From Coprobacillaceae bacterium (GTDB taxonomy: Bacteria; Bacillota_I; Bacilli_A; Erysipelotrichales; Coprobacillaceae): a DNA stretch of 32,000 nucleotides. Under the pieces are notes generated by a model. The model saw nothing but the letters and a program-made list of their open reading frames with translations. It did not search any database and was not told the DNA's origin. The translations under genes and the position numbers were made by a program. The stretch is from NCBI GenBank assembly GCA_963675915.1, contig OY780959.1, forward strand, positions 1,020,001 through 1,052,000. Direction: 5' to 3'. This document shows positions 1-31,765 of this stretch, in pieces. Every line of letters begins with the position of its first letter. Within the stretch, counting starts at the first letter, position 1.

Positions 1-145
1 ATGGTCAGATCACTATTGGCAGCCTCAGTAAATATCACCTGCCACTGATCATCAGAATAATTCAAATCATCACACCTCCAATTCGATGTGATAATCATAC
101 CATCAATGAACTCGACAACCTACCACCGCTCTATTTGACGCATAC
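1..145 (+). mobile_element. Right-end remnant of a second IS66-family-like element (called X here), cut by the window edge
   Basis: Ends CCACCGCTCTATTTGACGCATAC (123..145). Its reverse complement GTATGCGTCAAATAGAG resembles the GTAAGCGTCAAATAGA termini of the adjacent intact IS66. About 75 nt match, inverted, the fragment at 3378..3452. Confidence 0.55.
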
Positions 146-232
146 AATGTAAGCGTCAAATAGATGACACGTTTTAAAATTTAGTGCCTCGGGTTATAAT
201 TTCGTTGTAAGTTATAACAGGAGGTACTTTTT

Positions 233-526
233 ATGAATGCTCAAGAGCGTTATGATTATTGGAATGGTCTAGTTAAAAATTGGCGGATTTCCGGGAAATC
301 CATTAGCCGTTGGTGCATGGAAAATGGGATCAACAAGAATTCGTTTTATAAATGGCGTAAGATCATTGATACTGATGAACTCAGCCAACCGGTTAAGTCT
401 GATGGCCGTTTCTTCGCCCCGGTATTGATTGACAATCCCACCAGGAAGATTACAATCACTGTCAACGATGTGGAACTGACATTTGATGAGTCTCTGCTTT
501 GTAAAGTGATTGGGGCTATCAAATGA
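233..526 (+). CDS. tnpA: IS66-family accessory protein TnpA (HTH)
   Basis: 97-aa ORF, first of the IS66 triplet, with a W/K-rich HTH-like segment (ISRWCMENGINKNSFYKWRK). Stop overlaps the next start (ATGA). Confidence 0.8.
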   Translation: MNAQERYDYWNGLVKNWRISGKSISRWCMENGINKNSFYKWRKIIDTDELSQPVKSDGRFFAPVLIDNPTRKITITVNDVELTFDESLLCKVIGAIK

Positions 527-882
527 TTATCAACACTGATGATGTCAAACATATTTATCTTGCCACTGGACATGTCGACATGCGCAAGTCAATCGATGGT
601 TTGTCTTTGATAGTGGCCATGGAGTTTGATTTGGATGTGATGAACGGCAGCTTGTTCATTTTTGTCAACCGGGCTCGCAACAGGATGAAGATTCTTTATT
701 ACGAAAATGGTGGGTTTTGGCTGTTTCTCAAACGGCTTGAAAGCGGAAAGTTCAAGGTTCGTGAAGATGAGAATTCAAACACCAGAGTCATTGATGAAAG
801 ACAGTTTCGCTGGTTGCTCGAGGGCCTTGAAATCGATCAAAAATATGCATTTAAAAACATGGAAAATCGGCTTATTATCTAG
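523..882 (+). CDS. tnpB: IS66-family Orf2 / TnpB
   Basis: 119 aa with the characteristic HIYLATGHVDMRKSIDGLSLIV...FIFVNRARNRMKILYYENGGFWLFLKRLE pattern of IS66 Orf2 proteins. Confidence 0.88.
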   Translation: MIINTDDVKHIYLATGHVDMRKSIDGLSLIVAMEFDLDVMNGSLFIFVNRARNRMKILYYENGGFWLFLKRLESGKFKVREDENSNTRVIDERQFRWLLEGLEIDQKYAFKNMENRLII

Positions 883-914
883 TAACTTGGCCGATTTTTT
901 GGTATAATCTAGAT

Positions 915-2486: not shown

Positions 2487-2618
2487 AAATATGATCTTTT
2501 AGTGCATCAACGTAAATATCCAACTGAGCCCATTATACACTGGGGCTCTTTTCATTTGTAGGTGCCTTCTATTTGACGCTTACCATACAATTGACCGCGA
2601 AGGAGATTAAGGGCCTCA

Positions 2619-2666
2619 AAAAAGGAATCCCAAGACGGTAACAAACTGTCCCATGGATTCCTTTTT
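2619..2666. terminator. Hairpin with A/T-flanked 12-bp perfect stem (bidirectional terminator-like)
   Basis: AAAAAGGAATCC (2619..2630) pairs with GGATTCCTTTTT (2655..2666). The loop is 24 nt. It lies in orphan DNA between the IS66 and a solo IR. Confidence 0.35.
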
Positions 2667-2686
2667 GCATACCATTAAATATTTTT

Positions 2687-2709
2687 CCACCGCTCTATTT
2701 GACGCATAC
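2687..2709 (+). repeat. Solo 23-bp terminal repeat of IS66-like element X
   Basis: CCACCGCTCTATTTGACGCATAC is identical to 123..145. It abuts and truncates the IS3 orfA stub. Confidence 0.7.
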
Positions 2710-2946
2710 CTTTAAAATATCATTTTCCATCTTCAATTTTTGGTTTTCCTTGCGTAGCCGGATTAACTCGTTTTCTTCAGGACTGCGATTATCTTTTTCT
2801 TTGAAAGATCCGCTGTCACTGGACTGTCTAATCCATTTCCCAAATGATGAGGGTGTCAAATCATACTCTCTGATAATCTCGCTTAGCGGTTTTCCACTAC
2901 GGTATAAATTTACCATTTGTTGTTTGAATTCTTTACTATATTTCAT
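2695..2946 (-). pseudogene. IS3-family OrfA, C-terminally truncated
   Basis: MKYSKEFKQQMVNLYRSGKPLSEIIREYDLTPSSFGKWIRQ...ENQKLKMENDILK then runs into foreign IR sequence (VCVK*). ATG at 2946 is preceded by AAGGAG. Confidence 0.8.
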
Positions 2947-3029
2947 GTTGTCAGCTCCTTCTTTGCGGTAACTTAATACTACCACAAATATTTGTGTGTT
3001 TCACTGACAACTATCCTAACACACAGGGC
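2710..3029 (-). mobile_element. 5' stub of an IS3-family element (chimeric left end), truncated at its frameshift heptamer
   Basis: The left terminus and 5' UTR (2947..3029) differ by 2 nt from 20496..20568. The coding part matches the orfA at 31481..31765. It is cut right after TTTTAAAG by the solo IR at 2687..2709. Confidence 0.8.
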
Positions 3030-3142
3030 AACCCTACCTACTCCAAATTCATCCGTCATTTAACAACTTAAAAATTCAAATAATATAATTTGAAGTAATA
3101 TTGTAGCTCAAATAGTATATATTATTGAAGGAGGTGATTTTA

Positions 3143-3352
3143 ATGAAAAATTTCCTAGTCAATGAATAAAACACGATTAAATCTCTTGAACTCGAGTCGG
3201 TAATTGAGATATTAGTATTGTTACAAAACATTGATTCAGAATACAATATTTCAATTGTTAATATAAATAAAATACTTACTCTTCCAATATTAACTCTAAT
3301 TGATATATCAAACTATTTAAGAAGCCTTGACATAAATGAAATAAAAAATTAA
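3143..3352 (+). pseudogene. Orphan small ORF (69 codons) with an in-frame TAA after codon 8
   Basis: Near-perfect SD GAAGGAGGTG (3128..3137) precedes ATG 3143. TAA at 3167..3169 is followed by 60 further sense codons in the same frame until TAA 3350..3352. A 60-codon open stretch is improbable in such A/T-rich DNA. Confidence 0.4.
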
Positions 3353-8927: not shown

Positions 8928-11618
8928 TTAAATATCTGCATTGACCATCAATTTCACCAGGTCTTCGAACGAAACATCTCGTTTCCATCCCAGGGTCTTG
9001 GTTGCTTTGGTGTTGTCGCCACGAAGTTCTTTGATACTTGATGGCCGGAAATATTTCGAATCAATACCGACCAGCAGTTTTCCGGTCTGTTTGTCATAAC
9101 CTTTTTCATCAATACCCTTGTCGCGCCACTCGATTTCGATTCCCACTGTCTTGAAGGCCAGTTCCACGAACTCGCGGACACTGTGGGATTCATTGGTTGA
9201 AAGGACATAGTCACCCGGAATTGCTTCCTGGAGCATCAGCCACATTCCTGCCACATAATCCCCGGCAAAGCCCCAGTCTCTTTTGGAATCCAGGTCCCCC
9301 AGAGTCAGCTTGTCCTGACGGCCGTTATAGATGTCGGCTACCGCTTTGGTGATTTTACGGGTCACATATTTGCTGTCGCGTCGTGGTGATTCATGATTGA
9401 ACATGATTCCATTGCAGGCGAAGATATTATATGACTTGCGGTACATCACCGTAGTCCAATAGGCATTAAGTTTCGAAATTCCGTATGGTGAATTCGGCGC
9501 GAAAGCTGTCGTTTCACTTTGAGGTACGGTTTCCAGATTGTCACCATACATGACACATGATGAAGCTTGGAAATATTTGGCATTCAGTTTCGATTTTTGG
9601 ATTGCATCGAGAATCCGGATCGCCCCCAATGAGTTGACATCATTGGTGTATTCGGGAATCTCGTAAGAAGTCGAAACGAACGACTGTGAAGCCAGGTTGT
9701 AAACTTCATCCGGCTTTATCTGTTCAATCAGACGGTTGACATTGGTTCCATCCGTCAGATCCCCGTAATGAAGATAGAACGATTTGTTTTCGATGCCTTC
9801 CAGGATTTCCCCTTCAAGATCATTGTCGTTGTTCGAGAAACGACGCATCATCCCATGGACTTCATAGCCCTTGTTAAGCAAGAAGCGTGAAAGATAGAAA
9901 CCATCCTGACCGCTCACTCCGGTGATGAAGGCTACTTTCTTTTCTTCCTTGGTTTCAATGATGCTCATCAGCTCGGCTTCAAGCTGTTTTTGTTTATTGT
10001 CGGCTTCATATTTGGTTGCCCCGATGACACAATAGTAGAACTTGCATTTCGGCTCGGTTCCACTCGGTCTTACCGCAAACCACGATCCGTCTTCAAGATA
10101 ATATTTCAAGACGTTTGATTTGGGCAGGATTTTATATGAATGACGGACGAAGACATTTTCGTTGGCGAAGTCTTCGACTTTGACCACTTTGTATCCGGCA
10201 ATCCGGTTAAGCCGCTGCTTGCGCAGGTTGTTGACCACAATTCCGGCATTTTTCAGTTTCTTCGACTTGTTGACATCGATATAGTAACCGTATTTTTCAT
10301 AGATATCATGCAAGGCATCGACCAGGTCTTTGCCTTGGGATGCATAATAGTTGGCCACTTCGGCTAAAACCATACAAGACTGCACGGCATCCTTGTCTTT
10401 TGAGATTCCACTAAACAGGTAACCATATGATTCCTCGTATCCGAAGACAAAGTCGAACTCATTAGTTCTTTCATATTCGCAGATCAACTCCCCGATGAAT
10501 TTGAATCCAGTCAGGGTGGTCTGGTTTTTTATGCCATAATTTTGGGCGATCACTTTCCCCAAACTGCTGGTAACGACCGTATCGAAAATGATGGTGTCAT
10601 TAGTCAGTCTACATTGTTTTTCCAAGGTCCCCAAAATGTACTCAAGCAGGATTGCTCCAGTCTGATTTCCGGTCAGAAAAACAAATTCACCTTCATGCTC
10701 CACCGCGATTCCCAACCGGTCACAGTCAGGATCGGTGGCAATCACATACTTGGCATTGTTCTTTTTAGCCTGCGCGATTCCCATATCGAAAGCATGGATG
10801 TTTTCCGGATTCGGATTGGGCGTGTTGACAAACTCGGTTGATGGGAAACATTGTTCCTCGACGATTTCATAATTGACTCCGCGACGGTCGAACATGGTCG
10901 TTACCGGCACGAATGAAGTCCCATGTTGAGATGAGAAAACAATCTTGGTTGCCTGATAATCGACCTCATTGTATTTGACCTTGTCAAGCAGTTGATAGTA
11001 CTTGTTGTCGATCTCTTCACCGATATACTCGATGTATTGGAGTTCTTTTTCCTTTGAGGCCATTTCAACATCAAAACCATCTTCAACCATTGTGATGTAT
11101 TCATAAATCCGGTTGGTTTCATGGACCACACATTGGTTTCCATAATGGTTGTAGACCTTGAATCCGTTATATTCCTTGGTATTGTGGCTGGCAGTGATGA
11201 CCACTCCCGCAAAAGCCTCTAACTCCTGAATCGCAAATGACAATTCCGGAGTCGGTCGCAAATCATCGAACAGGTAGACCTTGATTTCATGATTGGCCAA
11301 CACCGATGCCACGATTTTCGCGAATTCCTTAGAATGACGGCGGTTGTCATAGGCGATAACCGCTGATTTGTTATGATCGCCGACATAGGCATTGATATAG
11401 TTAGCCAGACCTTCAGCCAGTTTTCTGATGGTGAAGACATTCAGCTTCGATGGTCCCACTCCCATGATTTCGCGGACTCCACCGGTACCGAATTTCAATT
11501 TGGATCCGAAGATCTCCTTGATTTCGATCTCGCTTAAAGATTCGATTTTTGCTTTCAATTCATCTGTCAAAGGAGCTTTGAGCCACTTTTCGTATACGTC
11601 CATGTATTCCAAAATCAC
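8928..11618 (-). CDS. Fusion protein: phosphomannomutase/phosphoglucomutase (aa 1-559) :: GDP-mannose-4,6-dehydratase-like SDR (aa 560-896)
   Basis: A single 896-codon ORF. The N-terminal part carries TASHNTKEYNGFKV, DPDCDRLG, GYEESYGY and RPSGTEPKCKFY. The C-terminal part (8931..9941) starts KKVAFITGVSGQDGFYLSRFLLNKGYEVHGMMRR and aligns over its whole length to Gmd. The GTG start at 11618 has SD AGAGGT and overlaps the upstream stop (GTGA). Confidence 0.85.
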   Translation of the reverse strand: MILEYMDVYEKWLKAPLTDELKAKIESLSEIEIKEIFGSKLKFGTGGVREIMGVGPSKLNVFTIRKLAEGLANYINAYVGDHNKSAVIAYDNRRHSKEFAKIVASVLANHEIKVYLFDDLRPTPELSFAIQELEAFAGVVITASHNTKEYNGFKVYNHYGNQCVVHETNRIYEYITMVEDGFDVEMASKEKELQYIEYIGEEIDNKYYQLLDKVKYNEVDYQATKIVFSSQHGTSFVPVTTMFDRRGVNYEIVEEQCFPSTEFVNTPNPNPENIHAFDMGIAQAKKNNAKYVIATDPDCDRLGIAVEHEGEFVFLTGNQTGAILLEYILGTLEKQCRLTNDTIIFDTVVTSSLGKVIAQNYGIKNQTTLTGFKFIGELICEYERTNEFDFVFGYEESYGYLFSGISKDKDAVQSCMVLAEVANYYASQGKDLVDALHDIYEKYGYYIDVNKSKKLKNAGIVVNNLRKQRLNRIAGYKVVKVEDFANENVFVRHSYKILPKSNVLKYYLEDGSWFAVRPSGTEPKCKFYYCVIGATKYEADNKQKQLEAELMSIIETKEEKKVAFITGVSGQDGFYLSRFLLNKGYEVHGMMRRFSNNDNDLEGEILEGIENKSFYLHYGDLTDGTNVNRLIEQIKPDEVYNLASQSFVSTSYEIPEYTNDVNSLGAIRILDAIQKSKLNAKYFQASSCVMYGDNLETVPQSETTAFAPNSPYGISKLNAYWTTVMYRKSYNIFACNGIMFNHESPRRDSKYVTRKITKAVADIYNGRQDKLTLGDLDSKRDWGFAGDYVAGMWLMLQEAIPGDYVLSTNESHSVREFVELAFKTVGIEIEWRDKGIDEKGYDKQTGKLLVGIDSKYFRPSSIKELRGDNTKATKTLGWKRDVSFEDLVKLMVNADI

Positions 11619-18961: not shown

Positions 18962-19228
18962 TGTATGATTAACTTGTACACAAAATAGATACAAGTATCA
19001 TACTTTTCCTTTCATAATTATTCTTGATATTTTATGATGAAATAGACATGAGTACATTTTAATGTATACTGTAGCGTGACTACTTCCTGGAGAGTAAATC
19101 CATCGGTCTATTTTATCTTTAATTAGTTGGATAAGTCTTTGAACTTTTATTTCTAGCAAGTGTATGAGAATAGGTCGCCGATGGTTTCTATCTTGTGTCA
19201 AAACATTTTAGAAAGGCGGTCTTTTTTC
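18962..19228 (+). ncRNA. Candidate IS110 bridge (seeker) RNA region in the non-coding left end
   Basis: Established for IS110/IS621-type elements: a structured guide RNA is encoded 5' of the recombinase. Here 267 nt are non-coding. There is a long-range stem CCATCGG (19100..19106) with CCGATGG (19178..19184), and a local hairpin around 19052..19070. The exact RNA ends are unknown. Confidence 0.45.
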
Positions 19229-20395
19229 ATGGCAAAAAAACTTGTAGGCATTGATATTGCCAAAAACTTACATTTCGCCTCGATTGTCGATTCAAACGGT
19301 GAGGTTTTTGAAAAAGCTTTTCCTTTTGAAAACAACAAGGCAGGTTTCGAACTTCTTATGTCTAAAGTCAATGACTTTGACAAAGAAAACATCGTATTTG
19401 GAATGGAGTCAACAGCTCACTATTCCAATAATTTAAGTAATTTTTTATTGATCAACGGATTTCGGGTCGTTATCATCAACCCTTTGCAGACCCACGCTCT
19501 TAGAAAAACCCAAATGCGTGATGCCAAGAATGATAAAATCGATTCTATGCTTATCTGTATGGCTCTCACCTTGAATCTTGGTAATGAAATATCTTTGAAC
19601 GATACTCTGAATGAATTGTATGATCTATGCAAATCATACCATGATGTTACAAAATTGAATGCAAGAGCAAAAATTCAAATGATTACTTATCTTGATCAAA
19701 ATTTCCCTGAATATCACAAAGAATTTGGCAAAAGCACTTTTGGAAAAGCATCTTTTGCATTGCTCAAAGAATATCCGACTCCTGAGAAAATAAATAAAGT
19801 TCGAATTGACAAGCTGACTAACATTCTTCACAACAATTCACGCGGCCGGTATGGCCGAGAAAAAGCGCTTAGACTCAAACAACTAGCGCAAAACTCTGTT
19901 GGCATACAGAGAGATTCCTTGGCTGTAAGAATGCAGTTAACTATTCTTCAAATCGAACTTTACGATAATCAGAAGAAGGAACTCAAGGACCAGATACGTT
20001 GTATAGTGGAATCTCTTGATTCACCTATCATGACAATCCCTGGCATGGGATATGTACAGGCGGGAATGATTCTTTCTTCTATTAAAGATATTAACTTATT
20101 TTCTCATCCAAGTAAAGTACTGGCATATGCCGGTTTGGATCCAAGAGTTAGACAATCAGGGAAATTCAATGCCTCATCGACAAGAATGTCCAAGCGCGGA
20201 AATTCAATGCTTAGATATGCTCTAATATGGGCTGCGAACAATGTTCAAAAAAATGCCAAAACATTTAATCTGTATTACACGAAAAAAATTAACGAAGGTA
20301 AAAGCCACTATAACGCACTGGGTCATACAGCCAATAAATTGGTAAGGGTAATCTACAAACTATTAACAACCAATCAAGAATACCAAAATATTTAA
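19229..20395 (+). CDS. IS110-family DEDD recombinase/transposase
   Basis: MAKKLVGIDIAKNLHF, FGMESTAHY, INPLQT, DKIDS (RuvC-like DEDD) plus the C-terminal IPGMGYVQAGMILS...RMSKRGNSMLRYAL domain. The start is moved to 19229 from the ORF-track 19160. Confidence 0.9.
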   Translation: MAKKLVGIDIAKNLHFASIVDSNGEVFEKAFPFENNKAGFELLMSKVNDFDKENIVFGMESTAHYSNNLSNFLLINGFRVVIINPLQTHALRKTQMRDAKNDKIDSMLICMALTLNLGNEISLNDTLNELYDLCKSYHDVTKLNARAKIQMITYLDQNFPEYHKEFGKSTFGKASFALLKEYPTPEKINKVRIDKLTNILHNNSRGRYGREKALRLKQLAQNSVGIQRDSLAVRMQLTILQIELYDNQKKELKDQIRCIVESLDSPIMTIPGMGYVQAGMILSSIKDINLFSHPSKVLAYAGLDPRVRQSGKFNASSTRMSKRGNSMLRYALIWAANNVQKNAKTFNLYYTKKINEGKSHYNALGHTANKLVRVIYKLLTTNQEYQNI

Positions 20396-20610
20396 AGGAT
20401 ATTTCAAAAAAATTGAATATTTAGCCTCTTTTTAGTGCGCCCAAAAACAGGAATCATTTTTTATCAAAAATCGTTTGACTTTTCATAGTTGGTCTCCTTC
20501 TTTGCGGCAACTTAATACTACCACAAATGTTTGTGTGTTTCACTGACAACTATCCTAACACACAGGGCTACCTAAATAGATCTAGATTAAATCTTTTCTC
20601 AAATTGTATT

Positions 20611-20995: not shown

Positions 20996-21431
20996 CCGTA
21001 ATTCCTTATTCATATACTTGTGGACTGTTGTTTTGCTGATATGAATGTCTTTCCTTGCAAGGAAAATAAGCATACTTCTATGTCCGAGGATTCCCTCAAT
21101 TTCATGATAGATGCTTTCAATTTCGTTGTGAATATCGGTTTTGTTATTACGAAAATCTTTCTTTGTGTCTTTGAGATAGTTGTAATAGGCATTTGGACAA
21201 ATACTAAACTTTCTAAGCAACCATCGTAACCCAAAGAGTTCTTGATTATTTTCAATGAATCGATGAGCAGCTAATCGATTTCCTTTGCGAAGAATGCCGC
21301 TGCATTTTTTTAGGAAGTCATTCTCCTTTTCAAGTTCTGCCTTTTCCTGGCAGAGCTTCTTAATTTGCATCATCAATTCATATTCACTCATTGCTTCTTC
21401 ACTTGTTTGGCATGAGCCGATATAATAAAGT
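20996..21431 (-). pseudogene. Internal fragment of an IS3-family element with orfA and orfB fused by a 1-nt insertion
   Basis: ...EKENDFLKKCSGILRKGNRLAAHRFIENNQELFGLRWLLRKF... reads straight from orfA into the orfB frame. The slippery site is A7 (21305..21311), where the related element at 25056..25062 has A6G. Both ends are truncated. Confidence 0.65.
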
Positions 21432-21868
21432 TGTAACATCAAGGTACAGTTGATAAAATGAAATCACTACAAGGAGATGTTACCGATGTCGAAAAATCAA
21501 AAATATGAACCTGAGTTCAAAGAAAAGATTATCCGCCTTCATCTAGAGGAAGGTCGAACAAAAAAGAGTTTAACCGAAGAATACAACTTGGGTAAGGGTA
21601 CCCTTACTTACTGGCTGCAACAACGCCGCAAAGAATGCCAATCTAATCCAACAATCCAAAACGAAAATGATGCATATGAAGAAGTTAAACGCCTTCGAAA
21701 AGAATTGGCTGAAGCCAAAAAGTGTAGCTAGTCAATTTATTTGATGGATGATTCTTCAAATTATATGGGCCTTCTTTTGGTCCTTTTTTGATGTTCTTCA
21801 AATTAATTGAATGGGATATTCAGTTTATTTGAAATGATGTTTTAGAGGAGAAAGAAAATAATCGCCTG

Positions 21869-22177
21869 TTAGACGATTATCCCTGACTCGTTTAATTTGT
21901 AGATGGCTTGTGATATGGCTTCGCTGCTGATTGGATCTATCTCGCGCAATAGAGCTGACTTGTTCCAAAATTTGTCTTTGAAATATGATAGTTCCAGTCC
22001 CAGCTTCATCAACGGGATGCAAATCCAGTTTCCTTTGGCTGATTTACCTACTATCACTTCGATTTCATTGCCGTCATATCTTAGCTGGAATTCACACTTA
22101 TCTGGGTTTTGCGAGACTATTACTATCTCGTTGGCCCATGTTTTTTCATCATAGTTGCAGAAGTATTCGATTATCAA
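21869..22177 (-). CDS. Transposon ORF4, 102-aa protein of unknown function
   Basis: Conserved between the copies (1 aa difference). The TTG start overlaps the ATPase stop (TTGA), with GAGGT 7 nt upstream. I recognise no motif. Confidence 0.6.
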   Translation of the reverse strand: MIIEYFCNYDEKTWANEIVIVSQNPDKCEFQLRYDGNEIEVIVGKSAKGNWICIPLMKLGLELSYFKDKFWNKSALLREIDPISSEAISQAIYKLNESGIIV

Positions 22178-22977
22178 ATTACTACCTCTTCGATTGTTTC
22201 TAGGATTAAATCGGAATCAATTACTTCGATTTTTCTGATTGCTCCGATAAACATTGCCCGGTCGCATATCCGATCAATAACCCGACAGGTGCCGTTGGAT
22301 GCATTGATGATTGCTTCAATGGCATTGTCGTTGAACACTTCTTGAATTGTTTTTCCGCCTTGGAGCTTGTCTTTGATATAAGCAAGACTTTCAGTTTTGT
22401 TTAACGGCTCCAGTTTGTAATTGATAATCATTCGCTGACGCAGTGGTTCATGAGCGGTCAATTTAAGGTTCCTGGTTATTGTCGGCAATCCGACCATCAA
22501 GACTACCGCATGATCCTTGGAATCCATATCAAAATTGAAGATCATCTTCAAATCATTAAGAATGGCGTTATTCATGTAATTACATTCATCAAAGATAAAC
22601 ACCGGGGTAATCCTTTTTTCGTAAATCAACTGGTTTATGGCTGATTGGATCTCCCTGAACAGATCATTCTTTCGATACCGAGGAGTCAAATCCAGCGACT
22701 CAGCCAGTTGCATATAGAATTCCTTGACTGTAAGGGTCGACATTGACAAATAAATTATCTTGTAAGCTGATTTGGGGAGTGTTTTGATATAGTTCCTGAT
22801 CATGGTTGTTTTGCCATGTCCAGGTTCACCGACTATTAGTCCGAAACCTTTGATTTCAAAAAGGCTGTTAAGGCGTACTTTCAATTCCTGGTATTCACTT
22901 GTTTCAATAAATAAATTCTTTGAGTTCTTGATAAACGGATTGAATTCCAATCCGTATCTGGTCCAATATTTTTCCAT
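22174..22977 (-). CDS. TniB/ExeA-like AAA+ ATPase (transposition helper)
   Basis: YWTRYGLEFNPF, Walker A GEPGHGKTT, Walker B VFIFDECN, MVGLPTI...LRQRM and SNGTCRVIDRICDRA are typical of TniB/ExeA (AAA_22) proteins. The ATG overlaps the transposase stop (TAATG). Confidence 0.8.
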   Translation of the reverse strand: MEKYWTRYGLEFNPFIKNSKNLFIETSEYQELKVRLNSLFEIKGFGLIVGEPGHGKTTMIRNYIKTLPKSAYKIIYLSMSTLTVKEFYMQLAESLDLTPRYRKNDLFREIQSAINQLIYEKRITPVFIFDECNYMNNAILNDLKMIFNFDMDSKDHAVVLMVGLPTITRNLKLTAHEPLRQRMIINYKLEPLNKTESLAYIKDKLQGGKTIQEVFNDNAIEAIINASNGTCRVIDRICDRAMFIGAIRKIEVIDSDLILETIEEVVI

Positions 22978-24224
22978 TAATCTTCTCCTCCGCATAATTT
23001 TGGCTGCACTCGTTTTACTTTTGAATTAGCGTTTTTATCAAGTAGGTGAATCCGTTCCAGTTCGCCGGTATTCTTGTTAACTATATAGACGTTTTCCAAG
23101 TCCGGAGTATATCGGAACATATGCCTTTCACCAGAATAGATATAATCAATCTCGTATTCCCGATTATCTATTTTGATTACCGAATCAGTACTGACAGACC
23201 GCTCTACTTCGAACAGGAAAGTATTGTCGATAAAGTCATCATCAAGCCTTTTGATCAGATTGCTTTCCTGAAAAAAACGTTGATGAGGTGTCAATCCATT
23301 CAAAGACGAATGCACCTTGTTGTTGTAATCATTGATGAACTGGCTTAAATCCTGCTTCAAACCTTCTAGATTGTTTGTGTAATCTTTTATGTTTATTTGG
23401 GCGAAGAACTGATCTTTAATCGTCCGAAACACCCGCTCAATTTTTGATTTTCCTTCCGGCGAGTACGGTTTGCAGTAGCTGATGGTTGAATTAATCCTTG
23501 CTGCAATCATCTTGATCTGGTGATTTCGATAATTGGAGCCGTTGTCAAACCTGAACATCTCAGGAATTCCGTATTTGGTGACCGCACTTTTCATAGTATC
23601 CATCAAATTGACTGTGTTGTCATTCAAATACAAATCAAGATGGACGATCATCCTTGAAGCATCATCAATCAGGGCAATCATATAAGTTCGGTTTTTCTTG
23701 CCATTAATGGTTATGTAAGGACCGACCGAACTGTCACCAGCCCAGTTCATATTGATATGGGGCACTTCGTAGCGGCGCATGTCTTTCTTGTTTGATAGAC
23801 GCAATTCCGACTTTATCTGATTGACACATCGATTAACGGTTGATAGCGAAACATCAGTTTTCTTGATGATTCCCTTTTCAATCAACTTGCCGTAAATTAC
23901 AGTTGCCGGCAATCTAGGATAGGTTGTCTTATAATATTTGATTGTTTCAACGATGTCATCATCCAGTCTTCTTGACTTGCCACAATCACTTCGCTTTTGA
24001 GGAATCAATCCATCGAAGCCTTTCTCTTCGTAAGCAGCAATCCACCTGGAGATGGTACTGCTTGAGACAGTGAAATCACGGTTGTCGAAACTCTTATAGA
24101 CTTTCTTGGTAGCTTCCGTAATCGCCTGATTCTTAGACCATGCAGCATCGTAATTTCCGGTAATGATGTCATGAATGATCCGATGGCGCATCAACGCTAC
24201 GTATTCTTGTTCTTTTTTATCCAT
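22977..24224 (-). CDS. DDE transposase of the TnsB/TniA/MuA type (rve core + Mu-transposase-like C-terminal barrel)
   Basis: 415 aa with N-terminal HTHs. Candidate DDE residues lie in NWAGDSS, FRFDNGSNY and PYSPEGKSKIERVFRTIK. The C-terminal RSVSTDSVIKIDNREYEI...GERHMFRYTPDLENVYIV resembles the Mu/TniA beta-barrel. Confidence 0.82.
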   Translation of the reverse strand: MDKKEQEYVALMRHRIIHDIITGNYDAAWSKNQAITEATKKVYKSFDNRDFTVSSSTISRWIAAYEEKGFDGLIPQKRSDCGKSRRLDDDIVETIKYYKTTYPRLPATVIYGKLIEKGIIKKTDVSLSTVNRCVNQIKSELRLSNKKDMRRYEVPHINMNWAGDSSVGPYITINGKKNRTYMIALIDDASRMIVHLDLYLNDNTVNLMDTMKSAVTKYGIPEMFRFDNGSNYRNHQIKMIAARINSTISYCKPYSPEGKSKIERVFRTIKDQFFAQINIKDYTNNLEGLKQDLSQFINDYNNKVHSSLNGLTPHQRFFQESNLIKRLDDDFIDNTFLFEVERSVSTDSVIKIDNREYEIDYIYSGERHMFRYTPDLENVYIVNKNTGELERIHLLDKNANSKVKRVQPKLCGGED

Positions 24225-24272
24225 ATAATACCTCCGTCACCCACTATATACTAATAGAATCGATTATTTAAC

Positions 24273-24827
24273 TCATCCTATGTGGTTGATGGTATACAGG
24301 ATATTTATGGTATTTCTACATTGCATGAACTGCATCAAATAATTTGAAAAACAACTTTCAACAAGTTGGTTAATATCATTTGATTCAATTCTCAACGACA
24401 TCAAACGTTGCTGCCAAACATTGATATACCTGCTCACAACATTATAAATTTCACACTCAGACATATAGGGATTTCGATCAAGAATGGCTTTTAATAGTTT
24501 CTGATTATTTTTATGTATGGAAATCTCAACTTGAACAGCCAACGGGATACTTGAATATGGAACCAAACATGAAAGAAGAATTGCGTGGGTTCTGCCACAA
24601 TCCTTACATCTTAGCCGCATTATTCTCAAATTAAAAAAGCCAAAAGGCAGTTTCACCCTTCGGTTATAATAACCATGAATTATGAAATTGCCCTGGCAGT
24701 CACCAGCGCAACTCAAGGAAAAACGATTGATATTGGAAACCAATTCATTATAATAGGCCTGGAGTTTGGCCCGCGAATCAATCTTCATCAATTTATTATT
24801 GATTTTTACTCCGTGATACGTTATCAT
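24273..24827 (-). CDS. Transposon ORF1, 184-aa Cys4 zinc-ribbon protein (resembles what I recall as DUF6431; unverified)
   Basis: CxxxC...HGYYNRRVKLPFGFF.LRIMRLRCKDCGRTHAILLSCLVPYSS. The start is set at the MITYH shared with copy 2; the ORF-track extension to 24941 covers the upstream hairpin. Confidence 0.65.
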   Translation of the reverse strand: MITYHGVKINNKLMKIDSRAKLQAYYNELVSNINRFSLSCAGDCQGNFIIHGYYNRRVKLPFGFFNLRIMRLRCKDCGRTHAILLSCLVPYSSIPLAVQVEISIHKNNQKLLKAILDRNPYMSECEIYNVVSRYINVWQQRLMSLRIESNDINQLVESCFSNYLMQFMQCRNTINILYTINHIG

Positions 24828-24844
24828 ATTCTTGTCTATATGGC

Positions 24845-24882
24845 AAATGAGAGAAACTGCTTGGTGGTGGCGTCTCTCATTT
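24845..24882 (-). promoter_or_regulatory. Conserved hairpin 17 nt upstream of ORF1 (copy 1)
   Basis: AAATGAGAGA and TCTCTCATTT form a 10-bp stem with an 18-nt loop. It carries a compensatory base pair relative to copy 2. Confidence 0.6.
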
Positions 24883-25055
24883 TTTCTTTCTCTAGATTTA
24901 TTACCAATAAAATAACAAAGCAAAAGGTCAATCTCAAGCAATTTGAAGAAAAATTCATCAAATTATTTGGAATTGACCTTTATTTATTATGACTAGATTA
25001 TGGTTAGATGGCATCAAATAAAATGGCTAGCTACAAAAAAGGAAAATGAATTCTT

Positions 25056-25062
25056 AAAAAAG
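25056..25062 (+). promoter_or_regulatory. Programmed -1 frameshift heptamer A AAA AAG
   Basis: The zero frame reads TTA AAA AAG GCA and orfB is open in the -1 frame. Confidence 0.7.
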
Positions 25063-25703
25063 GCAGCGGCATTCTTTGCAAAGGAAATCGATTAGAACAA
25101 TACCGTTTCATTGAAACATATCACCAAGAGTTTGGAGTCCGTTGGTTGTTGAGAAAATTCAAACTTTACCCTAACTCTTACTATAATTATTTGAAAGACC
25201 AGCAAAGAGACGCTCGCGAGGAAAAATGCAGTATTCAACGTAAAATAGTGGAAATCTATCACGAGGAAAACGGTGTCGCCGGTTATCGTATGATCAATGA
25301 TTACTTGAAGCAAAAGAAGATTTACTATTGCAATGCAACAATCTATAAATATTTGCGAGAACTCGGTTTAAAATCAATAGTCCGCAAAAGAAAGCCTGAT
25401 TACAAAAAGGGGCCGGCAAATAAGATATTTCCAAACCTGCTGAACCAGGATTTTATTACAGATAAGCCAAACAAGATTTGGTGCACTGACTTCACGTACT
25501 TGAGACAAAGAGACGGTAGTTTCCACTACAACTGTACCATCATCGATCTTGTCGCTAGCCAGTTTATATGGTAAGTATTTCTAGGATTTTATGCAAATTA
25601 AATAGAGGCCATTGCCAATTAATTTGAATGTTTATTCTTCAAATTAGTTGAACCTGACCTCTTTTTTTGTTACCTTGTTGATAAATATTCCATAGAAAGA
25701 AAA

Positions 25704-25741
25704 AAACGAGAGACCCAACCTGCAAGTAGTTTCTCTCGTTT
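25704..25741 (+). promoter_or_regulatory. Conserved hairpin 17 nt upstream of ORF1 (copy 2)
   Basis: AAACGAGAGA (25704..25713) and TCTCTCGTTT (25732..25741) form a 10-bp stem with an 18-nt loop. Confidence 0.6.
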
Positions 25742-25758
25742 GCCATATAGACAAACGT

Positions 25759-26313
25759 ATGATAACTTATCACAACGATAAAATCAAGAGTAAATTACTC
25801 GAAATCGATTCCGAATCAAAGCTCCAAGCTTTTTATAACGAAGCTGTAAATGATATTAACCGTTACGCCATCGGTTGTGTCAACTCATGCAATGGTAATC
25901 ACATCATTCATGGTTATTATAACCGAAGGGTAAAACTGCCTTTTGGCTTTTTCAGGTTGCGGATAATGCGGCTAAGATGCAAGGATTGCGGTAGAACCCA
26001 TGCAATTCTTCTTTCATGTTTGGTTCCATATTCAAGTATCCCGTTGGCTGTTCAAGTTGAGATTTCCATACATAAAAATAATCAGAAACTATTAAAAGCC
26101 ATTCTTGATCGAAATCCCTATATGTCTGAGTGTGAAATTTATAATGTTGTGAGCAGGTATATCAATTTTTGGCAGCAACGTTTGATGTCATTGAGAATTG
26201 AATCAAATGATATTAACCGTCTTGTTGAAAGCTGTTTTTCAAATTATTTGATGCAGTTCATGCAATGTAGAAATACCATAAATATCCTGTATACAATCAA
26301 CCACATAGGATGA
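25759..26313 (+). CDS. Transposon ORF1, Cys4 zinc-ribbon protein
   Basis: 184 aa. The first ~48 aa are only ~60% identical to copy 1, and the remainder differs at 3 positions. There is no obvious SD. Confidence 0.65.
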   Translation: MITYHNDKIKSKLLEIDSESKLQAFYNEAVNDINRYAIGCVNSCNGNHIIHGYYNRRVKLPFGFFRLRIMRLRCKDCGRTHAILLSCLVPYSSIPLAVQVEISIHKNNQKLLKAILDRNPYMSECEIYNVVSRYINFWQQRLMSLRIESNDINRLVESCFSNYLMQFMQCRNTINILYTINHIG

Positions 26314-26361
26314 GTTAAATAATCGATTCTATTAGTATATAGTGGGTGACGGAGGTATTAT

Positions 26362-27609
26362 ATGGATAAAAAAGAACAAGAATACGTAGCGTTGATGCGC
26401 CATCGGATCATTCATGACATCATTACCGGAAATTATGATGCTGCATGGTCTAAGAATCAGGCGATTACGGAAGCTACCAAGAAAGTCTATAAGAGTTTCG
26501 ACAACCGTGATTTCACTGTCTCAAGCAGTACCATCTCCAGATGGATTGCTGCTTACGAAGAAAAAGGCTTCGATGGATTGATTCCTCAAAAGCGGAGTGA
26601 TTGTGGCAAGTCAAGAAGACTGGATGATGACATCGTTGAAACAATCAAATATTATAAGACAACCTATCCTAGATTGCCGGCAACTGTAATATACGGCAAG
26701 TTGATTGAGAAAGGAATCATCAAGAAAACTGATGTTTCCCTATCAACCGTTAACCGATGTGTCAATCAGATAAAGTCGGAATTGCGGCTTTCAAACAAGA
26801 AAGACATGCGTCGCTACGAAGTGCCCCATATCAATATGAACTGGGCTGGCGACAGTTCGGTCGGCCCTTACATAACCATTAATGGCAAGAAGAACCGGAC
26901 ATACATGATTGCCCTGATCGATGATGCTTCAAGGATGATCGTCCATCTTGATTTGTATTTGAATGACAACACAGTCAATTTGATGGATACCATGAAAAGT
27001 GCGGTAACAAAATATGGAGTTCCTGAGATGTTCAGGTTTGACAACGGCTCCAATTATCGAAATCACCAGATCAAGATGATTGCAGCAAGGATTAATTCAA
27101 CCATTAGCTACTGCAAACCGTACTCGCCGGAAGGAAAATCAAAAATTGAGCGGGTGTTTCGGACGATCAAAGATCAGTTCTTCGCCCAAATAAACATAAA
27201 AGATTACACAAACAATCTAGAAGGTTTGAAGCAGGATTTAAGCCAGTTCATCAATGATTACAACAACAAGGTGCATTCGTCTTTGAATGGATTGACACCT
27301 CATCAACGTTTTTTTCAGGAAAGCAACCTTATCAAAAGGCTTGATGATGACTTTATCGACAACACTTTCCTGTTCGAAGTAGAGCGGTCTGTCAGTACTG
27401 ATTCGGTAATCAAAATAGATAATCGGGAATACGAGATTGATTATATCTATTCTGGTGAAAGGCATATGTTCCGATATACTCCGGACTTGGAAAACGTCTA
27501 TATAGTCAACAAGAATACCGGCGAACTGGAACGGATTCACCTACTTGATAAAAACGCCAATTCAAAAGTAAAACGAGTGCAGCCAAAATTATGCGGAGGA
27601 GAAGATTAA
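26362..27609 (+). CDS. DDE transposase of the TnsB/TniA/MuA type
   Basis: 415 aa with 1 aa difference from copy 1 (KYGVPEMF versus KYGIPEMF). SD GGAGG lies upstream. Confidence 0.82.
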   Translation: MDKKEQEYVALMRHRIIHDIITGNYDAAWSKNQAITEATKKVYKSFDNRDFTVSSSTISRWIAAYEEKGFDGLIPQKRSDCGKSRRLDDDIVETIKYYKTTYPRLPATVIYGKLIEKGIIKKTDVSLSTVNRCVNQIKSELRLSNKKDMRRYEVPHINMNWAGDSSVGPYITINGKKNRTYMIALIDDASRMIVHLDLYLNDNTVNLMDTMKSAVTKYGVPEMFRFDNGSNYRNHQIKMIAARINSTISYCKPYSPEGKSKIERVFRTIKDQFFAQINIKDYTNNLEGLKQDLSQFINDYNNKVHSSLNGLTPHQRFFQESNLIKRLDDDFIDNTFLFEVERSVSTDSVIKIDNREYEIDYIYSGERHMFRYTPDLENVYIVNKNTGELERIHLLDKNANSKVKRVQPKLCGGED

Positions 27610-28412
27610 TGGAAAAATATTGGACCAGATATGGATTGGAATTCAATCCGTTTATCAAGAACTCAAAGAATTTATTTATTGAAACAAGTGAATACCAGGA
27701 ATTGAAAGTACGCCTTAACAGCCTTTTTGAAATCAAGGGTTTCGGACTAATAGTCGGTGAACCCGGCCATGGCAAAACAACCATGATCAGAAACTATATC
27801 AAAACACTCCCCAAATCAGCTTACAAGATAATTTATTTGTCAATGTCGACCCTTACAGTCAAGGAGTTCTATATGCAACTAGCTGAGTCGCTGGATCTGA
27901 CTCCTCGGTATCGAAAGAATGATCTGTTCAGGGAGATCCAATCAGCCATAAACCAGTTGATTTACGAAAAAAGGATTACCCCGGTGTTTATCTTTGATGA
28001 ATGTAATTACATGAATAACGCCATTCTTAATGATTTGAAGATGATCTTCAATTTTGATATGGATTCCAAGGATCATGCTGTAGTCTTGATGGTCGGATTG
28101 CCGACAATAACAAGGAACCTGAAATTAACCGCTCATGAACCATTGCGCCAGCGAATGATTATCAATTACAAACTTGAGCCATTGAACAAGAGTGAAAGTC
28201 TTGCTTATATCAAAGACAAGCTCCAAGGCGGAAAAACAATTCAAGAAGTGTTCAATGATAATGCAATTGAGGCAATCATCAATGCATCCAACGGCACCTG
28301 TCGGGTTATTGATCGGATATGTGACCGGGCAATGTTTATCGGAGCAATCAGAAAAATCGAAGTAATTGATTCCGATTTAATCCTAGAAACAATCGAAGAG
28401 GTAGTAATTTGA
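27609..28412 (+). CDS. TniB/ExeA-like AAA+ ATPase
   Basis: 267 aa from the ATG overlapping the transposase TAA. SD GGAGGA. It has 1 aa difference from copy 1. Confidence 0.8.
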   Translation: MEKYWTRYGLEFNPFIKNSKNLFIETSEYQELKVRLNSLFEIKGFGLIVGEPGHGKTTMIRNYIKTLPKSAYKIIYLSMSTLTVKEFYMQLAESLDLTPRYRKNDLFREIQSAINQLIYEKRITPVFIFDECNYMNNAILNDLKMIFNFDMDSKDHAVVLMVGLPTITRNLKLTAHEPLRQRMIINYKLEPLNKSESLAYIKDKLQGGKTIQEVFNDNAIEAIINASNGTCRVIDRICDRAMFIGAIRKIEVIDSDLILETIEEVVI

Positions 28413-28717
28413 TAATCGAATACTTCTGCAACTATGATGAAAAAACATGGGCCAACGAGATAGTAATAGTCTCACAAAACCCAGATAAGTGTGAATTCCA
28501 GCTAAGATATGACGGAAATGAAATCGAAGTGATAGTAGGTAAATCAGCCAAAGGGAACTGGATTTGCATCCCGTTGATGAAGCTGGGACTGGAACTATCA
28601 TATTTCAAAGACAAATTTTGGAACAAGTCAGCTCTATTGCGCGAGATAGATCCAATCAGCAGCGAAGCAATATCACAAGCAATCTACAAAATAAACGAGT
28701 CAGGGATAATCGTCTAA
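28409..28717 (+). CDS. Transposon ORF4, 102-aa protein of unknown function
   Basis: TTG start coupled to the ATPase stop. Conserved in both copies. Confidence 0.6.
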   Translation: MIIEYFCNYDEKTWANEIVIVSQNPDKCEFQLRYDGNEIEVIVGKSAKGNWICIPLMKLGLELSYFKDKFWNKSALLREIDPISSEAISQAIYKINESGIIV

Positions 28718-29163
28718 AAAGGCGATTATTTTCTTTTTCCTCTAAAACATCATTTCAAATAAACTGAATATTCCATTCGATTAATTTGAAGAGCATCAAA
28801 AAAGGGCCAAAAGAAGGTCCATATAATTTGAAGAATCATCCATCAAATAAATTGACTAGCTACACGATCTTTATGACCGCTCAGTAATTGCGACATTGAG
28901 TGGTAGCAATATTACTGCAAAGTTAGCTGTCGATACATTGAAAATAGCCCTCACCAGACATAAACCTGGTAAAGGGATTATCCTGCATTCAGATCAAGGT
29001 GTGCAATTTTCAGCAAAAGAATTTAATGATTATTGTGAAGAAAACCATGTTCAACAAAGTATGAGTCGAGCAGGATGTCCATATGACCCCCATGTGTTAG
29101 GATAGTTGTCGTATAGAGGGATTTGGATTATACTTATAAAAACCGATCCAAGGAGACCAAGAA

Positions 29164-29640
29164 ATGACTAAAACATATACGACTGAAGAAAAAATAAAAT
29201 TGATCAATCAAACATTGCCACCACTCAACAAAACTGTTGTTCAGATTGCTGCTGAAACTGGAATCAAAACTTCGACTCTTTATTCCTGGAAGCGTAGATA
29301 CCTAAAATGTGCCGTTAATTCCAAAATCAAGGAACGTTACAGCAAGGCTGAAAGATTCCACTTTATCGTCGAATCCGCTTCGTTGAACGAACACGAACTT
29401 GGAGAATATTGCCGGCAAAAAGGAATTTATCCTGATGAGCTGACAAAGTGGAAAAATGAATTTCTCAATGTTTCCAGTCAAGATGATTCTGCGAAGGCCG
29501 AATTGCACAAGGAGCGAAGAAAACGTAAAGAGCTGGAAAAAGAACTCAAGCGCAAAGAAAAGGCTTTGGCTGAAGCTGCTGCGCTACTGGTTCTTGAAAA
29601 AAAGCTCCAAGCAATTTGGGACGAAGAAGAGGAAGATTAA
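29164..29640 (+). CDS. IS3-family OrfA
   Basis: 158 aa with an HTH (VVQIAAETGIKTSTLYSWKRRY) and a C-terminal coiled coil. Confidence 0.85.
   Translation: MTKTYTTEEKIKLINQTLPPLNKTVVQIAAETGIKTSTLYSWKRRYLKCAVNSKIKERYSKAERFHFIVESASLNEHELGEYCRQKGIYPDELTKWKNEFLNVSSQDDSAKAELHKERRKRKELEKELKRKEKALAEAAALLVLEKKLQAIWDEEEED
29598..29604 (+). promoter_or_regulatory. Programmed -1 frameshift heptamer A AAA AAG
   Basis: The zero frame reads GAA AAA AAG CTC. The -1 frame continues KAPSNLGRRRGRLTS into OrfB. Confidence 0.75.
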
Positions 29641-30719
29641 CCTCTCTCAAATTGCGTAAACTAATCGTTTCATTGATCAAAGACGCCAACGAAAATGGTG
29701 CTCGATTGATTCCGGCGTGTAAAGTGGTTGGAATATCCAAACGAACATATGAACGGTGGACCAATGAAACAGATGTGTTGGCTGACAAACGAACGACAGC
29801 TATTAGACCTGTGCCGGCCAATAAGCTAAGCGATGATGAGCGCCAAGTCGTAATTGACACTGTCAATTCTCCTAAATACAATTCTCTGCCTCCATCAACG
29901 ATAGTGCCTAAGTTAGCTGACGAAGGTAAATATATTGGCTCAGAATCAACCATTTACCGCATTCTAAGGGAAAATAAACAATTGAAACATCGTGGAAGAA
30001 GCAAGGAGCCTCAAAAGCAGGTCCCGACAACACATATTGCCAAAGCACCCAACGAGGTTTGGAGTTGGGATATTACTTGGTTGCACCGTAAGGATGTTAG
30101 GGGAGTTTATTACAAGTTATACATGATAATGGATATTTTCAGCCGGAAGATTGTCGGACATGAAGTGTGGGAAACGGAAAATGCCGAATATTCCCAAACT
30201 CTTATAAAAAGGACACTGTTAAAAGAAAAGATAAGTGGCAGATCGCTTGTGCTGCATTCAGATAATGGTGGCCCAATGAAAGCATCATCATTCCTGGGAA
30301 CGCTTGAAAAATTAGGTGTGCAAAGCTCGTTTTCAAGGCCGAGAGTAAGTAATGACAATCCATATTCGGAAGCACTGTTCAAAACGCTAAAATACATTCC
30401 TAAGTATCCAACCAGCGGGTTTGAATCACTGGAACATGCCCGAGAATGGACTAGTGAATTCGTCCATTGGTACAATGAAGTCCATTACCATAGCGGCATC
30501 AATTATGTAACCCCAGGAAGCAGACATCGTGGCGAAGATATCGAGATATTGAAGAATCGCAAAAGTGTTTACGCCCTTGCAAGAATGAAGCATCCTGAGA
30601 GATGGAGCGGTAATACTAAAACCTGGGAATATCAAACAACGGTTGCCCTGAATCCAACCGATGAAGAAAAAAACATGATCCAGAAAAAGAAATATCAAAC
30701 AAACCAAATCTACGCATAA
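29616..30719 (+). CDS. IS3-family OrfB (DDE)
   Basis: WSWDITWL, HSDNGGPM, DNPYSEALFKTLK. About 50% identical to the OrfB at 17420..18481. Confidence 0.88.
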   Translation: MGRRRGRLTSLKLRKLIVSLIKDANENGARLIPACKVVGISKRTYERWTNETDVLADKRTTAIRPVPANKLSDDERQVVIDTVNSPKYNSLPPSTIVPKLADEGKYIGSESTIYRILRENKQLKHRGRSKEPQKQVPTTHIAKAPNEVWSWDITWLHRKDVRGVYYKLYMIMDIFSRKIVGHEVWETENAEYSQTLIKRTLLKEKISGRSLVLHSDNGGPMKASSFLGTLEKLGVQSSFSRPRVSNDNPYSEALFKTLKYIPKYPTSGFESLEHAREWTSEFVHWYNEVHYHSGINYVTPGSRHRGEDIEILKNRKSVYALARMKHPERWSGNTKTWEYQTTVALNPTDEEKNMIQKKKYQTNQIYA

Positions 30720-31005
30720 TTAATTCAAAAAAATGCGTCAACTATATTGACAAACTCCGTGACAATGCACCAATGGAACGATATTTCAACACTTTAAAAA
30801 ATGAATATCTCAAGATATTTACCTTTAAAACATTCCAGGAGCAGTACCAAGGAATCATTGAATTTAGCTATGTTAAATATAATCATAAGCGGCCTCATTC
30901 ATTTAATGGTGGCCTCCCGCCAAGTATTGCCCGACATGCAAATTAAAATTTTATACCTTGGGGGAATGCGGACAAAATCTTAGACTTTCTTGAAAGGATT
31001 TTGAT

Positions 31006-31480: not shown

Positions 31481-31765
31481 ATGGCTAGAAGAGAACGTAG
31501 AGTATTCAGTGAAGAATTCAAACAACAAATGGTAAATTTATACCGTAGTGGAAAACCGCGAAGCGAGATTATCAGAGAATATGATTTGACACCCTCATCA
31601 TTTGGAAAATGGATTAGACAGTCAAGTGACAGCGGATCTTTCAAAGAAAAAGATAACCGCAGTCCTGAAGAAAACGAATTAATCCAACTACGCAAAGAAA
31701 ACCAAAAATTGAAGATGGAAAATGATATTTTAAAGCAGGCAGCTCTGATTATGGGACGAAAGTAA
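31481..31765 (+). CDS. IS3-family OrfA
   Basis: 94 aa, nearly identical from EEFKQQMVNLYRSGKP onward to the stub at 2695..2946. Confidence 0.88.
   Translation: MARRERRVFSEEFKQQMVNLYRSGKPRSEIIREYDLTPSSFGKWIRQSSDSGSFKEKDNRSPEENELIQLRKENQKLKMENDILKQAALIMGRK

Follow-up and report, generated by a model that had tools for sequence, protein, structure and literature searches.

Two separate insertions of a Mu- and Tn552-like transposon within one IS3 element of a Coprobacillaceae genome

Introduction

How do two copies of one transposon come to lie 514 bp apart inside a single insertion sequence (IS), when the transposon encodes an ATPase of the type associated with target immunity? The question is raised by a 32,000-nucleotide stretch of a Coprobacillaceae genome (assembly GCA_963675915.1, contig OY780959.1, positions 1,020,001 to 1,052,000; here called the window, and numbered from its first letter), in which two inverted copies of a 3.3-kb element with a DDE transposase and an AAA+ ATPase interrupt an IS of the IS3 family. 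Target immunity, the avoidance of DNA that already carries the ends of the element, is thought to follow from the interplay of a transposase with its AAA+ partner, as in phage Mu and Tn7, and few families have been tested for it.

The double insertion in the host IS3

A repeat search of the region 20-31 kb finds one dominant inverted repeat, with arms of 2830 nt at 21869-24698 and 25888-28717 (97% identical), and a second pair of arms of 149 nt at 21722-21870 and 28717-28865 (95%). The left-end, inner portions of the two copies are only 71-74% identical. The copies are inverted (Table 1), and all four termini have the form TGT...ACA. At 21723 the outer end of copy 1 reads TGTAGCTAGTCAATTT..., at 28864 that of copy 2 shows the complement, and the inner ends fall at 25035 and 25550. 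Three of the ends carry a 24-nt terminal repeat, which has exactly three occurrences in the window against none expected; at the remaining end, on the left of copy 2, the repeat has diverged. Each copy is flanked by its own exact 6-bp duplication, AAAAAG for copy 1 and CGATCT for copy 2, and the 514-bp spacer between them belongs to the host IS3.

Excision of each copy together with one duplication restores both reading frames of the host. Joining 21380-21722, 25042-25549 and the sequence from 28871 onwards gives an uninterrupted OrfA (...LAEAKK running into ENEFLKKAAAFFAKEID and a stop; ...LAEAKKENEFLKKAAAFFAKEID and a stop) and likewise OrfB (...CTIIDL running into YDRSVIA...; ...HYNCTIIDLYDRSVIATLSG...). 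The NCBIfam IS3 model matches the reconstructed OrfB in a single stretch across both junctions, with 206.3 bits (cut-off 160); OrfA matches HTH_Tnp_1 at 1e-10, and OrfB is an rve protein of the DDE type. In the overlap of OrfA and OrfB there is a candidate -1 frameshift heptamer, A AAA AAG (TTAAAAAAGG, approximately 25055-25064). The host IS3 is interrupted a third time further downstream, in OrfB, by an unrelated IS of the IS3 family, and taking out all three inserts restores a complete OrfB that ends at 30946. This host copy is thus nested with three insertions, and is a dead and harmless landing pad.

Chance is excluded by the combination of a 3.3-kb repeat with two perfect duplications of 6 bp and two reading frames that are restored. 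Because the outer flanks differ (AAAAAG and CGATCT), the 7.1-kb unit, which is bounded by two outward-facing right ends, did not arrive as one; because each duplication is matched, the spacer is still in its original orientation. The first-pass annotation of this DNA had described two inverted copies with separate duplications, had attributed them to two independent simple insertions, and had drawn attention to the 7.1-kb near-palindrome that results. The present analysis bears out all three points, independence being further supported by a core difference of about 3%, mostly synonymous, and by the different left ends. The nested structure is in itself ordinary.

Gene content and ends of the element

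Each copy contains four open reading frames (ORFs) in the same order, coding for a DUF6431 protein, a DDE transposase, an AAA_22 ATPase and a DUF6618 protein. The DUF6431 protein has invariant pairs of cysteines, which mark it as a zinc ribbon. The transposase consists of HTH_32 and rve domains, and only one residue differs between the copies (99.8% identity). The length of the ATPase is counted from the start used by its homologues, which is Met7 of an ORF of 273 residues. Among the four ORFs there is no TnsA, no resolvase and no recombinase domain.

A DUF6431 profile built from 40 sequences finds nothing in the PDB below E 0.85, and Pfam returns generic zinc-ribbon echoes only, so that no similarity to TniQ was detectable by these PDB-profile and Pfam searches. 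No usable structure model was obtained: the AlphaFold models are of low confidence, with a mean predicted local distance difference test score of 48.5 for DUF6431 (from a 4-sequence alignment) and 44.2 for DUF6618 (from a single sequence).

An 11-bp motif, CAAATWAWYTG, is found in both orientations two to three times in the left 110 bp of the element and four times in the right 120 bp, compared with one occurrence in 24.9 kb of background. These clusters are putative transposase-binding sites, and they give the element ends of the multi-site kind known from Mu, Tn7 and Tn552. One more copy of the motif, the fifth, is TTCAAATTATTTGATG, which lies at about position 690 of the element (window positions of about 26240 and 24345), inside the DUF6431 gene. 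It is kept in all four lineages of the element, and overlaps the part of the gene coding for an invariant FSNYLMQFMQ motif; its presence there could be accidental, or it could serve the transposase as an internal site.

Table 1 Features of the double insertion and its host IS3 (window coordinates)
Feature	Coordinates	Strand	Remarks
Host IS3, 5' part, OrfA start to insertion site 1	21477..21722	+	
Copy 1 target duplication AAAAAG	21717..21722	.	partner 25036-25041
Copy 1 (c1 lineage)	21723..25035	-	3313 bp, TGT...ACA ends
Copy 1 right end	21723..21845	-	four CAAATWAWYTG-type sites, orientation alternating
Copy 1 DUF6618	21869..22177	-	102 aa
Copy 1 AAA_22/MuB-like ATPase	22174..22977	-	267 aa; ORF extends to 22995
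Copy 1 DDE (rve) transposase	22977..24224	-	415 aa
Copy 1 DUF6431 zinc-ribbon protein	24273..24827	-	184 aa from conserved ATG
Copy 1 left end (c1/c3 type)	24925..25035	-	
Copy 1 target duplication AAAAAG	25036..25041	.	partner 21717-21722
Host IS3, middle segment	25042..25543	+	heptamer and OrfB start; full spacer 25036-25549 includes one copy of each duplication
Copy 2 target duplication CGATCT	25544..25549	.	partner 28865-28870
Copy 2 (c2 lineage)	25550..28864	+	3315 bp, chimera
Copy 2 DUF6431 zinc-ribbon protein	25759..26313	+	184 aa
Copy 2 DDE transposase	26362..27609	+	415 aa
Copy 2 MuB-like ATPase	27609..28412	+	267 aa
Copy 2 DUF6618	28409..28717	+	102 aa
Copy 2 target duplication CGATCT	28865..28870	.	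partner 25544-25549
Host IS3, OrfB segment, copy 2 to third insertion	28871..29087	+	
Third insertion, unrelated IS3-family IS	29088..30760	+	1673 bp; OrfA 29164-29640, OrfB 29616-30719; duplication GAC or TGAC
Host IS3, OrfB 3' end (NAPMERYF...ARHAN, stop)	30764..30946	+	in frame after third-insertion removal

Two lineages, one of them a chimera

The core regions of the two copies differ by about 3%, almost entirely at synonymous positions, and there are about 200 differing positions overall. Between the copies, the synonymous divergence (dS) and the ratio of nonsynonymous to synonymous divergence (dN/dS) are 0.128 and 0.008 for the transposase and 0.149 and 0.010 for the ATPase, with dN/dS of 0.047 for DUF6618 and 0.22 for DUF6431; across the transposase, the ATPase and DUF6618, dS lies at 0.13-0.15. 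The genes are thus under purifying selection, and these low values show that all four are functional. Neither copy is damaged.

The first 355 bp or so of copy 2, comprising the left end and the first third of the DUF6431 gene, behave differently. Here, and over the left 400 bp, copy 2 is only 66-77% identical to copy 1, and 85-90% identical to a further lineage, c4, found in another Coprobacillaceae genome (OY776328.1, locus L015). Beyond this point the relationship flips, and copy 2 is c1-like at 97%. Copy 2 is therefore a recombinant, with a left end taken from a third lineage. A metagenomic copy that is identical to it (L001, below) shows that this c2 chimera has transposed recently. The genome OY776328.1 holds two lineages of the element (loci L015 and L016), whose transposases are 76% identical, so that lineages able to exchange end segments coexist in one genome.

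Relationship to known transposons

In profile searches the transposase matches PHROG 310 ('transposase') at 1e-51, and the ATPase matches PHROG 296 ('DNA transposition protein') at 5e-25. Against the PDB, the family profile of the transposase finds TnsB of a CRISPR-associated transposon (CAST) at 1e-10 and IstA of IS5376 at 7e-8, while the top match of the ATPase family profile is MuB (5e-7); VchTnsC, at E 0.84, is not significant. From these comparisons the pair is closest to the A and B proteins of phage Mu and to Tn552, and not to TniB, IstB or IS481.

The element had initially been labelled as a TnsB/TniA plus TniB-like transposon. This label is too specific, given that there are four genes, that MuB is the best characterised relative of the ATPase, that the TniB family (PF05621) scores 19.3 bits on the ATPase, below its cut-off of 22.4, and that the target duplication is 6 bp. 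In Mu, Tn7 and Tn5053 the duplication is 5 bp. The last two of these points speak against the Tn7/Tn5053 class of TnsB-TniB elements. Membership of IS481 was rejected (the IS481 model gives 170.6 bits, short of its cut-off of 224, and there are four genes rather than a single ORF), as was membership of IS21, where the NCBIfam IS21 model gives 65.8 against a cut-off of 160 and the ATPase has no match to IstB_IS21 (PF01695).

With Tn552 of Staphylococcus aureus, which has a p480 transposase and a p271 ATP-binding protein, the element has several features in common. Both have Bacillota hosts, and a Mu-class DDE transposase followed by a P-loop ATPase of approximately 270 residues; both have long multi-site ends (approximately 110-120 bp; about 120 bp in Tn552) and a 6-bp target duplication (PMC3276174). 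At the sequence level p480 of Tn552, taken from the pN315 copy, is a distant homologue of the transposase (27% identity over 297 residues, E 8e-22). The ATPase aligns to p271 over 41 residues only, in the FIET-EY/Walker A region (E 6e-6), the pN315 copy being perhaps truncated. Unlike Tn552, the element has no BinL resolvase, no res site and no cargo (bla) genes; it adds DUF6431 upstream and DUF6618 downstream, and measures 3.3 kb as against 6.5 kb.

With phage Mu the element shares the best profile matches for both transposase and ATPase, and the multiple transposase sites at each end. It differs in that it is not a phage, in duplicating 6 rather than 5 bp, and in its much smaller transposase (415 residues); immunity, which is well documented in Mu, is not evident here. 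With Tn7, Tn5053 and the CAST systems it has in common an AAA+ partner and a transposase in which the catalytic core and the following domain align to TnsB. It also has a small zinc-ribbon protein, where those systems have TniQ, but it lacks TnsA and a resolvase, and its duplication is 6 rather than 5 bp. IS21 is comparable as a compact element of transposase plus ATPase with repeated end motifs, and IstA is a detectable homologue, but the present element has extra genes.

As a DDE transposase with an AAA+ partner the element is of a known kind, of which it represents an abundant variant that is uncharacterised. This variant combines Mu-like proteins with a 6-bp duplication like that of Tn552, has two further conserved genes, and lacks a resolvase. 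A formal description of the family was not found in the literature. A repetitive cassette of DUF6431, DDE and AAA ATPase genes has been reported in 15 copies in Clostridium sp. JS66, where a 63-kb deletion lies between two of them, but it was described as a repeat only, without ends, duplications or classification (bioRxiv 10.64898/2026.08.16.744336). This cassette is a member of the family and keeps its gene order, and it is likewise multi-copy and a substrate for homologous recombination, though it lacks DUF6618. A proper name and annotation are merited, in place of 'DDE-type integrase', 'ExeA' and 'DUF6431'.

Insertions elsewhere

Three further insertions of the same subfamily were found. 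One is a c2-type copy on a metagenomic contig (ENA ERZ21878193 ctg6212l, locus L001), identical to copy 2 over positions 67-3315 and flanked, at a different site, by the duplication CTTAAT. An IS66 element divides the left end of this copy, and the separated left terminus is also found at the locus. The IS66 (780-3289 of the locus) is identical to positions 146-2593 of the window and is inserted at about 67-75 of the c2-type left end; there are three copies of IS66 within 12 kb. The other two are in OY776328.1, a Coprobacillaceae genome of 2.88 Mb. A c1-like copy with the duplication CTGAAG (L003), the single locus returned by a scan of genome contigs, lies inside the gene of an ISNCY transposase, the frame of which is restored when the copy is excised. 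The c4 copy (L015, transposase 76% identical), with the duplication ATATCG, lies exactly where an IS1634-like transposase gene begins. Four of the five subfamily insertions are within ISs, of three families.

A more distant relative in Clostridium butyricum (52% identical, 3042 bp, without DUF6618) is present in at least six dispersed copies, with 6-bp duplications TCATAC, ACAATG, ATTGAC and CGTTAT. Since all five subfamily insertions and at least four of this relative have duplications of 6 bp, this length is a trait of the family. The ten insertion target sites have no sequence in common. In one C. butyricum genome (GCA_013149575.1) two inverted copies at 0.42 and 1.06 Mb (L004 and L005) have exchanged their flanking ATTGAC and CGTTAT, which implies a chromosomal inversion of approximately 650 kb by recombination between the copies. 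Recombination between copies, as the near-palindrome might be expected to undergo, therefore does occur in the family, which drives both inversions and deletions in this way.

In 80 metagenomic relatives the gene order is kept, with the three core genes found in 54 and DUF6618 as well in 20. Most of them are on contigs of about 3 kb, as expected of a multi-copy repeat. This is an abundant family of the gut and of Clostridia, which breaks short-read assemblies into contigs of about 3.3 kb. A plasmid collection contained no near-identical DNA, and no relative of DUF6431 by tblastn.

The flanks of these 80 relatives contain 61 ORFs within 900 bp of the element ends, at least 12 of which are fragments of IS transposases (three each of ISL3 and IS3, two each of IS1634 and IS66 TnpA, and one each of IS256 and IS4); a further three are group II intron reverse transcriptases and three are tyrosine recombinases. 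Two of the metagenomic elements lie inside copies of ISL3 and IS1634. The suggestion that something in this particular IS3 is a strong attractant is not supported as an effect specific to IS3, since other insertions are in ISNCY and IS1634-like genes, and in the window a third IS has entered the same IS3, which itself stands in a pile of ISs. What emerges is that the element is associated with mobile DNA in general, which may reflect either neutral survival or a real preference, between which the data cannot separate.

It is worth adding that two loci were set aside. L107 (an 86% relative) and L097 have no matching duplications, and have probably recombined or been mis-joined at the edges of repeats. 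L097 is one of a group (L097-L104, in Clostridium sp. LQ25, CP111077.1, and in metagenomes) in which a related three-gene element occupies a conserved site immediately upstream of clustered genes of resistance type, namely Arr-ms, MFS, nucleotidyltransferase, acetyltransferase, aminoglycoside resistance and CAT genes. The element itself is of normal length (3040 bp) and carries no cargo, and its flanks have no matching duplication.

Origin of the pair and target immunity

On the basis of these observations, we hypothesise that the element is an autonomous 3.3-kb transposon, whose transposase, of the MuA/TnsB/Tn552-p480 class, would bind the motif clusters at the ends and insert the element through a 6-bp staggered cut, and whose MuB-like AAA+ ATPase would capture the target and activate the transposase. 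A member of the c1 lineage (copy 1) and a member of the recombinant c2 lineage (copy 2) inserted separately into one IS3. Their closeness would come from landing, or surviving, in harmless mobile DNA, which is a frequent location of the family, and would imply that self-avoidance is weak or absent at 0.5 kb. Taken as a whole, this explanation is probably the right one.

Two ways of obtaining the structure from a single copy can be set aside almost completely. False duplication of one copy by the assembler would deserve thought, because inverted duplications are known in long-read data and repeats are hard to assemble, but it would give a perfect palindrome, and not two copies with about 200 differing positions, different left ends and different flanking duplications; moreover, the frames of the IS3 are restored only if both copies are real. 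An artefact is thus excluded for practical purposes, and we regard it as very improbable indeed. Even less credible is a single intramolecular replicative transposition that made the second, inverted copy. Transposases of the Mu/Tn552 class without a TnsA partner can transpose replicatively and give inverted copies, but replicative inversion predicts that the copies are identical and that the old and new duplications are split between them. The matched duplication of each copy, the original orientation of the spacer and a synonymous divergence of about 0.13 refute it.

The remaining alternatives accept two insertions, and differ in how they came together. One retains Mu-like immunity, and would have the two insertions brought together by homologous recombination or gene conversion between IS3 alleles or copies that had each been hit once, with a crossover in the 514-bp interval. 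The ingredients for this are present, in that IS3-type sequences are multi-copy in the window, copy 2 is itself a recombinant, and recombination between copies is documented by the swapped flanks in C. butyricum and the 63-kb deletion in Clostridium sp. JS66; in addition, the closest characterised relative of the ATPase is MuB, the paradigm of an immunity protein (PMC11208146). This route is nonetheless less parsimonious, as it calls for two independent hits on one 1.2-kb IS3 followed by a crossover within 514 bp, and the loci and scans examined contain no allele with a single insertion and no second copy of the host IS3. An intact version of the host IS3 was absent from every locus examined, and neither the two empty IS3 sites nor the right end had an exact match in the viral contigs scanned. 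We consider recombination quite unlikely. Active attraction, in which the transposon prefers mobile elements or the end of a resident copy, so that the second insertion was drawn to the IS3 or to the first insertion, is also unlikely, if the less so of the two. It would fit the four IS insertions out of five independent ones in the subfamily, the roughly 20-30% of flanking ORFs that are IS transposase fragments family-wide, the elements found inside ISL3 and IS1634 copies, and the report that Tn552 inserts into, or beside, res sites and other transposons (PMC3276174). The targets, however, come from at least four unrelated IS families with no site sequence in common, many C. butyricum copies are in ordinary intergenic or gene contexts, and no other adjacent pair was found among the 80 metagenomic loci or the C. 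butyricum copies. The same distribution is also expected if purifying selection removes harmful insertions.

Separate insertion of two lineages into harmless DNA thus remains the preferred explanation, and it bears directly on immunity. Immunity is documented for Mu and Tn7, where it acts through transposase bound to either end of the resident copy, and is only suggested for IstB (PMC11208146). The first-pass annotation had offered, as one way out, that the diverged left ends might escape immunity. This is unlikely: either end would suffice, and here the right ends, at 95% identity, have all their motif sites in common, while a single residue separates the transposases. Its other proposal, that the family lacks immunity, is a reasonable reading of the spacing, but a single pair cannot establish it. 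The conclusion that we favour as plausible is that target immunity is weak or absent at 0.5 kb.

Several considerations weigh against this conclusion and against the explanation of which it is part. One pair cannot measure immunity, and a rare event can become fixed. No second close pair was seen in the 80 metagenomic loci, where short contigs bias against seeing one, and there is none among the six C. butyricum copies, of which the nearest two are 44 kb apart. Furthermore, the enrichment in ISs could reflect selection for harmless sites rather than preference, the counts being without a baseline. It is a tentative and rather doubtful extension that the family at large (DUF6431, MuA-like transposase and MuB-like ATPase, in Bacillota) has no immunity despite its MuB-type ATPase, and is perhaps biased towards mobile elements. 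If true, it would provide a natural counter-example for finding which features of the ATPase and transposase create immunity. The double insertion is thus a natural lead on target immunity and not a demonstration of its absence. With nearly identical transposases and right ends 0.5 kb apart, the pair makes the family a cheap candidate for asking if a MuB-like ATPase suffices for immunity.

Surroundings of the insertion

The pile of ISs in which the host IS3 stands extends over 16 kb (15.8 kb to the end of the window). It comprises IS256, an IS3-like element, IS110, an IS3 fragment and the host IS3, followed by another element of the IS3 family and a further OrfA. A 30-bp sequence, TCACTGACAACTATCCTAACACACAGGGC, occurs twice in the window, at 3001-3035 and 20540-20574, and corresponds in reverse complement to the left terminal repeat that bounds the IS at 29088. 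The second occurrence is just downstream of an IS110-family gene (19160-20395). The sequence could be an IS end standing alone, or a target for IS110. Near the ends of the window there is an inverted repeat of 228 bp (2710-2937 and 31508-31735, 95.6% identical). Outside the mobile DNA, an ORF of 896 residues on the minus strand (8928-11618) is a fusion of a phosphomannomutase (PGM_PMM I-IV) to a GDP-mannose 4,6-dehydratase domain, and sits in a polysaccharide gene cluster with three Acyl_transf_3 genes.

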